The notes under the pieces: generated by a model
The model's input: only the letters and a program-made list of their open reading frames with translations
Databases searched by the model: none
What the model was told of the DNA's origin: nothing
IMG/VR virus record: IMGVR_UViG_3300032244_000155
Coordinates: 5,306 to 69,305 of that record
Strand: one strand, 5' to 3'
Length of the DNA: 64,000 bases
From: a virus
Lineage: Duplodnaviria > Caudoviricetes
Translations under genes and position numbers: made by a program
Shown here: positions 2,294 to 18,685 of the stretch, piece after piece
Layout of the letters: each line of letters opens with the position of its first letter
How positions within the stretch are numbered: the stretch's first letter is position 1

Positions 2294-3100
2294 TTATACT
2301 GTGATCAATAGTGCGTTTGCGGATGTTGTGTTTGCAGACTGACCAACTGAAGACATTGTTACGCGGAAGATCGAATTCGATAGTCCACCACCACCAGCAG
2401 CAATTGTATTGTTTGCAATTAACAATATTGCTGTATTTGTGTTTGAGTATGTACCAGTGTTTGTTAGATCCACGAATGATGCATTTGCATTCGCAGCGCG
2501 CTGCCAACGGTAATTGATTGTATTTCCAGTAGGCTCGATTGTTGCAACAACTGTAAACGATGCTGGCGAATTGTTTGCACCAGTATTCGAACTTGGCTGA
2601 GTTACGATTGTAATGAAACTATCTGGGAATGTCGCATCATCATCAGAATCATTGTAAATTGATGGCATTGCAACTAATGTCTCATACTTTTTACGAGCAT
2701 TACCATGCATGTCAGTGTATCGAATAACGTTTACCCAACCAGCATGTGTGTGTGCATCAGCTCTAGCTTCGTTTGAATCGACACCAAATGTGTAGATTGT
2801 GTTTGCAAATTGTGAACTTTGAACAGTTGCACTATTAGCGGCTAAAAACTTTGGTGTGTCTCTTCCGAAAATAGTTGTAGCAACGTTAGCAGCTGTCCAA
2901 GCAGGTTCAAAAGTCAATGATGTATTGCTTGCAATTGAAATAACTTTACGACTTGAACCATTAATAATGATAGTATCGCCAACTTCAAGTTCTGTTGTGA
3001 AAACAGTTCCTGTTCCTGTTAAAATTGATGTATTAACTGTACTATTAGCAAATGCAGTTCCAGTTAATGTAAAAATATCTCTACTTCCCCATAGTGCCAT
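2294..3100 (-). CDS. Virion structural protein with C-terminal Ig-like domain
   Basis: MALWG start; C-terminal ITIVTQP..SFTVVAT..NYRWQR pattern of phage Ig-like domains. Confidence 0.65.
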   Translation of the reverse strand: MALWGSRDIFTLTGTAFANSTVNTSILTGTGTVFTTELEVGDTIIINGSSRKVISIASNTSLTFEPAWTAANVATTIFGRDTPKFLAANSATVQSSQFANTIYTFGVDSNEARADAHTHAGWVNVIRYTDMHGNARKKYETLVAMPSIYNDSDDDATFPDSFITIVTQPSSNTGANNSPASFTVVATIEPTGNTINYRWQRAANANASFVDLTNTGTYSNTNTAILLIANNTIAAGGGGLSNSIFRVTMSSVGQSANTTSANALLITV

Positions 3101-3112
3101 GGTGTTCTCCTT

Positions 3113-16093: not shown

Positions 16094-17212
16094 TCAAATA
16101 AAGAAACTCTTTAGAGAGGAAACATGCTCGACATTCCAACCTATAGTATTAACGATTGTTCTAATCGGATCCAGATATGCTTTCTCAAACTGAGTTTCAT
16201 AGTCAATGTACTTCTCTAGTTTAAACTCTTTTGGTAGAATTGTCAAGATTGCAAACACGTTCTCTTGTACTGGATTTGGAACTTTCATGTAGCAGAATTT
16301 AATCTTCTCGCCATCTTTGATTGTCTGATACTTCTTTGTTAGTTTCTCTTTCTCCAAAAGATGATTGTAAAGAATAGCACCACGAACATGAATTGGTGTA
16401 CCCTTTGTGTAAATATCTTTTGAAGACTTGTACTTCTTTATATCACTAACTCCTCGAGGAAAAGCAATGTCCTCAAATGCTAGTGTTGTAAAAGTTTTTC
16501 TGAAATCTGCAACGAATTCCTGAAACTCCGATTCGGTACCATTCATCACAATCTTTAGAGAGTCCTTAATCTTATCTCTACATGACATTGGAGTCGAAGA
16601 CTTGACTGCTTCAATGCCCATCATCTTTAGTTTAGGTTCTGCAAAACGAACACCTTCCGAATCATAAACATTTAGAATGTATCGCTTCTTTGCTGTCCAG
16701 ATACCTTTGTTTGCAATCACTTCACGCTTCATCTGCATCTTCTGATCAAATGCATTCATGTAATCCGCTAGTTCTTGATATGCTTTATCAATGAACGGTT
16801 CAATTTTCTCTGTGCAAGCCTTGTCGATAAAATCAACAATTTTTTCTTTTTCAATATTCTTAGATCCGTAGACCATATGTACCAACGGACCAAGATTGAC
16901 GTATACAGAATCCGTATCTGAGGCAATGACATAATCCACACTCTTCGTCTTTAATAGTTTATTGAAGAAGCCGTTTAGCTTGTCTTCAATCCAACGAATA
17001 CTCAATTGCCCAGATAGTGTGATGGCTTCTGCTTGGCGAATGTCGAAGAATCGAAACCATTCGTTACCAAACTATCCGAGCGCACCGTATGCCGAATTGA
17101 GTTGCACTTTCTTTGCAAGCTGAAGATTCTTGTATTTAGAAATGTGCTGCTCAACTTGCATACGATACGCCCGAAGGTTCTCCGTAGTAAGTTGTTTTAA
17201 ATTTTTTTGCAT
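16094..17212 (-). CDS. 43B: DNA polymerase gp43, C-terminal subunit (43B), interrupted by an in-frame TAG at codon 47 (17072-17074)
   Basis: From ATG 17212: ..[40 protein letters not shown].., continuous in frame with the 303-aa ORF holding motif C (ASDTDSVY); 1119 nt = 373 codons. Confidence 0.85.
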
Positions 17213-17221
17213 ATCCAACCT

Positions 17222-18685
17222 TTATAAATTTCTAGATTTTAGTTCCAAATCGATTCGTTCGAGTTCTTTCTGCGCTTCAATCATTTTCTTTTTATACATT
17301 GAACGATCATCATACATGCGCTGCATCATTGCAGGCAGAAAGCCTTGCTTGTCACGTTTAAAGTAATAGCCATTTGCAGCCATACAATATTCGCTTGATG
17401 CTTGATGTTCTCCACTCAACAAATTATCAATAGAAATATTTTTGTGTATGCCTGAAACAATAGTCTCAGGCGAAACATTGTACTGCATGATCAGATGTGG
17501 ATAAAGAGAATTCAAATCAAAAGAAACAACCCATTCATGCATACCTACAATTGGATCTTTAACATATGCACCAGCATACTGTTCGCTTTTGATTGTCTTC
17601 ACTTTTTGTGGAACAACTACACCACGATCCATCAATTCATTATGAATGAGAACATCCCACATACGAACTTGAGAGAATACATCTTCATAATTAACCTTCG
17701 CATCATATGCAAGTGCAAGAGCCATGTCAATCAATTTCATCTTAGCATCAATGCGATCAACCAATTCAACGTCATGAATGTTATACTCGATAAACTTTTG
17801 AAAGTTGGTTCGATACAATTGATGCAGATTTTCTACTTCAGAATAATCTAGTTTCTTTTCTCCTAGTTCAACGAATGAGATATGATTAAGAGAAAAACTC
17901 TCATGCTGTGCATATGTAAACTTCTTATAAAGTTCAAGATAGTCTAGCGTAGCAATCCCAGTCAATTCATAATTGACAAATGATTTCCATGAAGTACCTT
18001 CTTTCTTTGAAGTGCTAGAATTCTTTTCGCCAACCTTTCTCCAAGGCGACAATCGTTTAACTGTATTCTCTCCCATCAATCGATTAATTCGATTAACAAG
18101 ATAAGGAATATCGAAAAACTTAATATTCCAACCAGTCACAATGTCGGGCGAAGTCTCTTCCCATTTTTCTAGAAAAAACATGATTAATTGGTTTTCATCA
18201 CGGCATTGTGTATACGTTACATCATTTCGATCATTATTGAATTGATCACAACCAAACACATAAAACATTCCATCAATCTTAAATGTAATTGCTGTGATTG
18301 GTTCAGACGCAGAAGCTGGCTCAGGAAATCCATTCTCGGAGCCAACCTCAATGTCAATGTTAGCAATTCGAATTACAGAAGTGTCGTAGTCTACTTTGCC
18401 GGGATACGCTTCATTTGCATAAACGTATTGATAGTTTGTCAATCCGTAGATAGAAAAGTTGTCTACATCCTCATACCTTTTGATGAACTCATTTGCATTT
18501 GACATTGATCCCTGACGAACTGGCGAAACGAATTCGCCAGACAGAGTTTTGAACTCCGTCTTTTCTTTTGATGGTATGTATAGAGTGGGATCATAATTTA
18601 TTTTGTCTATGTGTCGTTTGCCGTTGTTGTAGCCACGAACTAGAATCTGATTGCCATATCGAGAAAAATTTGTGTAGAATTTCAT
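17222..18685 (-). CDS. 43A: DNA polymerase gp43, N-terminal subunit (43A: exonuclease and motif A)
   Basis: ExoI DIEV, ExoII GWNIKFFDIPY, ExoIII YNIHDV, motif A SFDLNSLYPH; stops within the fingers. Confidence 0.95.
   Translation of the reverse strand: MKFYTNFSRYGNQILVRGYNNGKRHIDKINYDPTLYIPSKEKTEFKTLSGEFVSPVRQGSMSNANEFIKRYEDVDNFSIYGLTNYQYVYANEAYPGKVDYDTSVIRIANIDIEVGSENGFPEPASASEPITAITFKIDGMFYVFGCDQFNNDRNDVTYTQCRDENQLIMFFLEKWEETSPDIVTGWNIKFFDIPYLVNRINRLMGENTVKRLSPWRKVGEKNSSTSKKEGTSWKSFVNYELTGIATLDYLELYKKFTYAQHESFSLNHISFVELGEKKLDYSEVENLHQLYRTNFQKFIEYNIHDVELVDRIDAKMKLIDMALALAYDAKVNYEDVFSQVRMWDVLIHNELMDRGVVVPQKVKTIKSEQYAGAYVKDPIVGMHEWVVSFDLNSLYPHLIMQYNVSPETIVSGIHKNISIDNLLSGEHQASSEYCMAANGYYFKRDKQGFLPAMMQRMYDDRSMYKKKMIEAQKELERIDLELKSRNL

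Follow-up and report, generated by a model that had tools for sequence, protein, structure and literature searches.

How might a phage make its replicative DNA polymerase from a gene that carries a stop codon within the most conserved motif of the enzyme? The question is raised by gp43B, the downstream cistron of a split polymerase gene, on the minus strand of a 64,000-nucleotide stretch (the window) of the IMG/VR record IMGVR_UViG_3300032244_000155. The window comes from an uncultured freshwater T4-like phage, and its contig is a 69.3-kb IMG/VR fragment with 36% G+C and zero N. In gp43B, a stop codon and six extra bases interrupt motif B. Based on comparisons of related loci, we consider it probable that this insert shields a mobile cassette from its own endonuclease, and that ribosomes hop over the insert, from the codon before the stop to a matching codon. 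We also see a slightly better than even chance that widespread natural programmed short hops (4–11 nt, stop-triggered, with Leu or Gly take-off) occur in the T4-like replicative polymerase, carried by a GIY-YIG cassette as a self-immunity device. They would then form a second counterpart of T4 gene 60, evolved independently, and the first stop-hops known from nature.

The gp43B frame begins at an ATG (17210–17212), and its first 46 codons (17075–17212) encode a 23-residue N-terminal tail and the motif B stretch ending in NSAYGALG. The minus strand at 17063–17080 reads CTC GGA TAG TTT GGT AAC, with TAC GGT GCG upstream and GAA TGG downstream. GGA (17075–17077) is codon 46 and the proposed take-off codon, followed by the in-frame TAG (17072–17074) as codon 47. 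The next two triplets (17066–17071) are a spacer, TTT (17069–17071), and the proposed landing codon, GGT (17066–17068). After the insert, the frame is open for 325 more codons, to 16094. This region (16094–17065) starts with AAC (Asn, 17063–17065), encodes the remainder of the palm, including motif C (DTDS), and the thumb, and ends with a TAA stop (16094–16096). From AAC on, the protein is 99% identical to unsplit relatives. The initial annotation of the window had described GGA-TAG-TTT-GGT with GGA as codon 46 and UAG as codon 47, which is correct in every detail when the DNA is read from the ATG. It had further noted three extra codons relative to the family pattern, with the frame kept; all 19 aligned homologues have YGAL-GNxxFRFF without these codons.

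The insert is real. An assembly error had been listed among the initial alternatives, together with a proposal to look for the insertion in related genomes. The same nine nucleotides are found in six other loci (L001–L006) from at least five assemblies and are retained in a contig that spans the site in an independent 2017 freshwater run, which excludes this alternative. The six loci read CTC GGA TAG TTT GG(T/C) AA(C/T) and come from different samples: L001 and L002 (a 144-kb scaffold) from ENA, L003 from Logan, and L004 and L005/L006 from IMG. Their flanks differ from each other by synonymous changes only, and L004 and L005 have GGC instead of GGT as the landing codon. A contig of run X2 spans the site, and one X2 contig has 711 extra nucleotides between 17221 and 17223. 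A 2025 run contains an insert-free, unsplit allele at higher depth. Additionally, five different 46-residue open reading frames (ORFs) ending in NSAYGALG (P0123, P0124, P0127, P0130 and P0132) are present in independent JGI, ENA and Logan assemblies. Downstream of the TAG, the window and L001 differ by 51 synonymous and 9 non-synonymous codons over 326 codons; thus, the frame beyond the stop is under purifying selection.

The probability that we assign to an assembly or sequencing artefact is negligible. The contig does come from metagenomic assembly, and one-base “deletions” at the same spot in long-contig ENA assemblies (L082–L084) resemble homopolymer errors. However, the insert is identical across the ENA, Logan and JGI assemblies, from different samples and years, and is accompanied by allele-specific synonymous differences. 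The ENA contigs L082–L084 (128–135 kb) carry split polymerases without the cassette and have lost one base at the Leu-Gly junction (TTGG[G]A / TTGG[G]T). The simplest explanation is a homopolymer error in long-read assembly; the loss recurs in two alleles, and a real −1 site is still conceivable.

The mobile cassette and its endonuclease

The closest insert-free relatives (L007, L008 and P0129) are also unsplit. The window and the cassette-free L007 are 93–100% identical outside positions 17066–17276, compared to 23–57% inside (82% in one 40-column block), and identity is 100% again from 17070 onward. Within the block, the motif B stretch codes for the same residues as in L007 with many synonymous differences. 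The stretch encoding the N-terminal tail is 93–95% identical to L009, a locus whose polymerase is otherwise only 60–75% identical. A co-converted flanking tract common to otherwise divergent hosts, as seen in these two comparisons, is characteristic of homing cassettes. The collapse of identity with L007 and the tail shared with the divergent L009 thus identify the block as a horizontally moving cassette with the 9-nt insert at its right edge. As judged from these alignments, the nine nucleotides (TAG TTT GGT or, equivalently, GGA TAG TTT) constitute the right-hand edge of a ~210-nt mobile cassette block within the polymerase gene.

The block (17066–17276) consists of the C-terminal tail and stop of gp43A, a 9-nt spacer, the start and N-terminal tail of gp43B, the recoded motif B stretch and the insert. 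The polymerase is encoded in two cistrons, the break lying between motifs A and B as in other split gp43 genes. The upstream cistron, gp43A (17222–18685, minus strand), encodes the N-terminal subunit of 487 residues, containing the exonuclease domain, motif A and the first fingers helix, and matches PF00136 above its cut-off. Its TAA stop (17222–17224) is separated from the gp43B ATG by nine nucleotides (17213–17221), which lie where relatives have the endonuclease gene. The two codons share a frame and are three codons apart (TAA AGG TTG GAT ATG); the split in the window therefore amounts to a single stop codon followed by a restart.

In its full form, the cassette comprises the gp43A C-terminal tail and stop, a free-standing endonuclease gene, the gp43B start with a tail of ~23 residues, the recoded motif B stretch and the stop-led insert. 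The gp43A tail of the carriers is helical, and the gp43B start overlaps the end of the endonuclease gene out of frame. The endonuclease is encoded by an ORF of 232–246 residues between 43A and 43B (L004, L005, L009 and L010; also L014, L020, L021 and others). Members of this family are 44–75% identical in pairwise comparisons and match Seg-like GIY-YIG homing endonucleases annotated in cultured T4-like phages (tblastn, E down to 1e-31). Among nine members compared with Pfam, six matched SegE_GIY-YIG and five matched GIY-YIG. L001 retains a 52-residue remnant of the endonuclease, and the window has no GIY-YIG ORF at the insertion point, only the 9-nt spacer. The window is thus a cassette remnant and not a full homing-cassette member. 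The endonuclease has been lost and the insert kept in many loci (the window, L002, L003, L016, L019, L058–L064, L066 and the P0165 type, the last on 16 contigs). In L018 and L049, the endonuclease copy (168–179 residues) starts after the nuclease motifs and so lacks the whole GIY-YIG catalytic domain. Retaining the DNA-binding C-terminal part together with the 9-nt insert, these two loci represent an intermediate stage of decay.

The endonuclease and the interruption occur together. Motif B is interrupted in 20/20 polymerase-adjacent loci found via the endonuclease alone, and the endonuclease is present in none of the 62 uninterrupted polymerase loci among the matches listed, 60 of which are unsplit (Fisher p = 1.6e-19 for 20/20 against 0/62 among these matches). 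From this association, and from the precedents of T4 MobA and seg43(25) of Aeromonas phage 25 (see below), we infer that the endonuclease cuts a target without the insert and leaves one with it intact. The layout of the gene 60/MobA element, together with an interruption of phage phiAS4 at the same codons, suggests that the short inserts act by disrupting the endonuclease target. The insert would break this target in the stretch of the gene where DNA conservation is highest. Carriers would then be immune to cleavage, and would remain so after the endonuclease gene has been lost, as in the window.

Two further observations concern the site of the split. L007 and L008 are ENA scaffolds whose polymerase gene contains N-filled gaps with duplicated flanks, which is why their gene calls begin mid-gene; there is no biological split. 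In other split polymerases, unrelated small ORFs lie between 43A and 43B (positions 2227–2976 of L085 and 2729–3001 of L082), and one of these encodes a protein of 89–90 residues that resembles a small ORF upstream of gp43A. The split at the tip of the fingers therefore appears to be a general landing pad.

Stop-led inserts in T4-like polymerases

IMG/VR was scanned for motif B followed by a stop and, separately, for the endonuclease itself, and look-ups of short ORFs added further loci. More than 45 contigs share one architecture: gp43A, the endonuclease gene (full, truncated, remnant or absent), the gp43B start, the tail, motif B, the stop and the rest of the polymerase. The polymerases of these carriers are divergent and T4-like. 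The stop immediately follows the codon for Leu or Gly in YGALG (Ser is the take-off residue in one class) and is followed by one to eight more bases. The inserts fall into 23 types with a total length of 4–11 nt, mostly not multiples of three. In all 23, the first triplet is a stop (TAG, TAA or TGA) that directly follows the take-off codon, as GGA TAG does in the window, an arrangement typical of bypassing. Pattern matches in L011, L013, L017, L022, L029, L030 and L068 lie outside polymerase genes and were discarded as chance occurrences.

Gly is the take-off residue in GGA-TAG-TTT-GGT/GGC (the window type), GGC-TAG-CTA-GGC, GGT-TAG-TTA-GGT/GGA, the 4-nt GGT-TAG-C and the 5-nt GGT-TAG-GT, which is found in at least five polymerase lineages. 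TAA is used in GGT-TAA-CT-GGT and GGT-TAA-TT-GGA. The longer Gly types are GGC-TGA-ATAA-GGT, GGA-TGA-CTAA-GGT, GGC-TGA-CTAA-GGC, GGA-TGA-CTAT-GGT and GGA-TAG-CTAT-GGT. The Leu types are CTT-TAG-CTT/CTC/CTA, CTT-TGA-CTT, CTT-TAG-C-CTT, CTT-TAG-TGA-CTC and CTG-TAG-CGAAT-CTG, and the Ser class is TCC-TAG-TT-ACC/ACT. GGA-TAG-CTAT-GGT and GGA-TGA-CTAT-GGT (L228 against L085) differ solely in the identity of the stop. This interchange within an otherwise identical insert argues that the stop itself is selected.

In 20 of the 23 types, positions 1 and 2 of the take-off codon recur in the codon just 5′ of the resume codon, and in about ten the two codons are identical. For the 21 types then known, 18 matches correspond to a binomial p of 2e-19, with the limitation that the types are not fully independent by descent. 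Skipping from the take-off to the landing codon restores the ancestral protein exactly. The start and the take-off codon are 44–50 codons apart in almost every type, the P0165 type (41) being the exception. This spacing may reflect a nascent-peptide signal of the gene 60 kind, but the conserved residues before the take-off codon are also explicable by polymerase motif B and by the role of the tail in subunit assembly.

One carrier is a complete genome. G001, the contig of L021, is 178,609 nt long with terminal repeats (CheckV 100%) and has a single PolB locus, with the endonuclease and the GGT-TAG-GT insert. It encodes 25–27 tRNAs, with no suppressor among them. As its only PolB gene is interrupted, carriers look viable.

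A second conserved element lies further upstream. GGAG or GAGG (often AAGGAGG) is found at a fixed 100–103 nt upstream of the motif B Leu codon in 21 of the 23 cassette types, compared to just 12% of downstream 36-nt windows with a motif of this kind (p ~1e-17). The window copy, a Shine-Dalgarno-like GGAG, is at 17180–17183 on the minus strand. The residues encoded over the element vary (T/M/K/R, then E, then E/D/G/A/N) and the nucleotides are kept; the Glu codons downstream favor GAA by 215:84. From this pattern, the element looks like an RNA-level component of the cassette.

Proposed translation past the stop codon

We envisage the hop as follows. A ribosome would arrive at the stop with peptidyl-tRNA-Gly paired to GGA in the P site, and slow decoding of the stop would allow the tRNA to unpair. 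The mRNA would then slide by 9 nt, the tRNA would re-pair on GGU, and translation would resume at AAC. The product would be the exact ancestral polymerase sequence. We favor hopping because it is the sole single mechanism that fits all insert lengths, and because it also predicts the leading stop and the matching codons.

The spread of lengths bears directly on amber readthrough, in which a near-cognate or suppressor tRNA would read the UAG of the in-frame 9-nt form and leave three extra residues after motif B (G-X-F-G). The frame is indeed kept in the window and in other types of 6 and 9 nt, no one standard tRNA is cognate to both GGA and GGU, and under TAG=Q the ORF could be merged by the ENA pipeline (P0131). 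However, readthrough cannot repair the sister cassettes with inserts of 4, 5, 7, 8, 10 or 11 nt, one type (L077) has two consecutive stops, TAG TGA, and the added residues would lie inside an otherwise invariant motif. The decoding capacity of these phages also speaks against it. The window contig contains no tRNA at all, and no CUA anticodon is present in the tRNA arrays of three related carriers (G001, G004 and G005), which leaves the readthrough considered in the initial annotation without a basis in a suppressor tRNA or in genome-wide recoding of TAG. TAG terminates ordinary genes in the contig, such as a methyltransferase gene. We rejected genome-wide recoding because TAG-joined pairs of ORFs proved to be separate genes, gp43B being the only gene affected. 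P0131 (372 residues, Gln at the site) was likewise set aside as evidence of decoding; it is just a gene call under TAG=Q, and its DNA has TAG. We therefore regard readthrough as quite unlikely.

The insert might instead be only a DNA-level scar of immunity, a costly allele that gives little or no full-length gp43B and is kept by homing drive, by complementation during co-infection, by trace spontaneous recoding, or by a three-piece enzyme made of gp43A, the 46-residue peptide and a reinitiated C-terminal piece. Cassette-free alleles co-occur with the cassette and can dominate, as in X5, where they reach a depth of 59 compared to 3–7 for the cassette-specific pieces. Homing elements can spread at a cost, and MobA has been discussed as possibly mildly deleterious (Manning and Atkins, bioRxiv 10.1101/2022.08.31.505936). 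The folds of 27 loci, in which no stimulatory signals were found, are also compatible with a scar. In X2, however, the cassette-specific piece has a depth of 21.8, compared to 51–67 on its flanks, and the insert persists in the many endonuclease-less loci listed above. The interrupted locus is the only PolB of the complete genome G001. Reinitiation faces a further difficulty, as no ATG, GTG or TTG lies between the stop and the conserved GNxxFRFFD residues; the first in-frame start in the window is a TTG at 17005, 22 codons downstream of the invariant residues. Finally, a scar predicts neither a stop at the head of every type nor matching flanking codons. A scar without programmed translation is, on balance, unlikely.

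The short direct repeats that flank most inserts mean that excision from the RNA, too, would restore the ancestral message. An endonuclease-ligase or editing step could remove the insert before translation, and T4-like phages, as general background, encode RNA repair enzymes. However, no known mechanism excises 4–11 nt from bacterial or phage mRNA, there is no conserved structure around the site, and a stop as the first triplet would be unnecessary. Removal at the RNA level is thus very improbable.

Several points weigh against hopping itself. Its support comes from comparative sequence, and the metatranscriptome runs X19 and X20 have no contig over 17051–17077. Unstimulated stop-hops in E. 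coli occur at ~1%, a rate that seems low given that the enzyme is essential. The folds of 27 loci share no helix (z from −2.0 to +2.0) and revealed no conserved stimulatory RNA structure. The stem-loop at take-off and the Shine-Dalgarno-like element within the gap that characterize gene 60 are missing, and gaps of 4–11 nt are too short for signals of that type. The matching codons could partly be a by-product of the origin of the inserts as short duplications, and some of the insert types share descent. With the cassette or its C-terminal domain as query, blastn and tblastn returned no cultured phage that carries the cassette. The cultured split-polymerase phages PVA8 and S-N03 have an uninterrupted 43B, and Pseudoalteromonas phage XG4 encodes related endonucleases elsewhere in its genome and none in its polymerase.

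The pairing of take-off and landing codons is also imperfect. In the window, they differ at the wobble base (GGA compared to GGU, or GGC in the related loci, with two of three positions matched), so that a standard tRNA-Gly(UCC) would meet a U:U or U:C mismatch on re-pairing. A wobble mismatch of this kind is seen in eight of the 23 types. Three types, GGT-TAG-C and TCC-TAG-TT-ACC/ACT, match at positions 2 and 3 only and may use a +1 or another shift. Genes for tRNA-Gly(UCC) lie within the large tRNA arrays of two carriers (L102 in G004, 346–419; L103 in G005, 3034–3107). A tRNA with U34 that reads all GGN codons would make the GGA/GGY pairs of take-off and landing codons cognate.

The initial annotation had proposed a gene-60-like hop from GGA to GGU and had noted, as a possible coincidence, an upstream CC-UUCG-GG element like the gene 60 loop. 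The cassette layout, the stop-led inserts of non-triplet length and the matching codons argue for the hop, whereas the hairpin (CCUUCGGG) falls away as a signal. The CCTTCGGG element is present at 17170–17177, with a fold that is not significant (z = −0.67), and is missing from most other cassette types. Pairing around the insert itself was also observed. In the window-type allele, CGGAUAGU pairs with ACUAUCUGG ~55 nt downstream (z = −0.7). The take-off codon, stop and spacer (CUCGGAUAGU, 17066–17080) can pair with ACUAUCUGGG (17008–17020), ~55 nt downstream; this pairing is retained in L001 and L004, with a fold no better than shuffles (z = −0.7). Taken together, the observation at motif B is confirmed, and comparative evidence supports the hop.

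Significance and comparison with known systems

Full-text literature searches found no prior description of such inserts in polymerase genes. Programmed bypassing in bacteria and phages rests essentially on the T4 gene 60 cassette and its homologues; if our interpretation is true, the polymerase cassettes constitute a second bypass system, which occupies another essential gene and involves another endonuclease family. The two dozen natural variants, which differ in gap length (4–11 nt), stop identity and take-off and landing codons, are a ready-made mutational series on minimal hop signals. Short inserts of this kind would also offer homing endonucleases a general route to protect their own target in invariant coding DNA, with no need for an intron or intein. 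Gene callers split or truncate these polymerases into orphan ORFs of 41–49 residues, and such cases are therefore invisible in current annotations.

Among known systems, the mitochondria of Magnusiomyces contain 81 instances of translational jumping over “byps” (PMC5009743). These are likewise short mobile coding inserts that are skipped via matching take-off and landing codons. The byps differ from the inserts described here in being mitochondrial, 27–55 nt long and without a homing-endonuclease cassette.

Gene 43 of Aeromonas phages 25 and phiAS4 is split, with the seg43(25) GIY-YIG endonuclease and a group I intron in 43B, according to Petrov 2010 as cited through PMC2988022 and PMC2677866. 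The split polymerase subunits of the phage 25 type are described as co-purifying and active (PMC2988022). In cultured phiAS4, the YGALG codons are interrupted downstream of the GIY-YIG gene; exon 1 of 43B ends within the Leu codon, and ~210 nt intervene. These phages thus share with our carriers the split in the fingers, a GIY-YIG gene between 43A and 43B and a short first piece of 43B (57 residues) ending in motif B. In contrast, their ~210-nt interruption is described as a self-splicing group I intron, and inserts of 4–11 nt cannot self-splice. The C-terminal domains of their endonucleases are also unlike those found here.

Synthetic stop-hops in E. coli are said to have been made by Weiss, Dunn, Atkins and Gesteland in 1987. 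In such constructs, matching codons lie on either side of a stop, and nine nucleotides specify one amino acid (PMC5009743). The same 2016 review knew of no natural occurrences of in-frame stop-hops (PMC5009743). The synthetic +5 and +6 shifts and CUU-UAG-CUA equal insert types found here (L040 and L009). They were engineered and of low efficiency, whereas the present cases are natural, recurrent and in an essential gene.

The closest parallel is the bypass cassette of T4 gene 60 and MobA, which was reportedly the subject of work by Huang in 1988 and by Bonocora in 2011. It differs from the present cassettes in several respects. The host gene is a topoisomerase gene there and a PolB polymerase gene here, and the endonuclease is of the HNH and GIY-YIG type, respectively. 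The gap is 20–50 nt, compared to 4–11 nt in the polymerases, where the take-off stem-loop and the Shine-Dalgarno element in the gap are missing. Leu as well as Gly serves as the putative take-off residue in the polymerases, the landing codon is often a two-of-three match, and the bypass is proposed from comparative data. The MobA/gene 60 element carries extensions at the C and N termini, overlaps the endonuclease gene out of frame and includes a recoded stretch of homology, and its bypass cassette terminates at the landing codon; its endonuclease is progressively lost with the insert retained, and the insert blocks self-cleavage (bioRxiv 10.1101/2022.08.31.505936). The same preprint calls the topoisomerase cassette unique and never mentions the polymerase. 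Both systems split an essential replication gene by a free-standing homing endonuclease and are built from the same cassette parts. In both, the insert forms the end of the cassette and is headed by a stop that immediately follows a Gly codon, at about codon 46 of the downstream gene, and in both the endonuclease decays and the insert stays.

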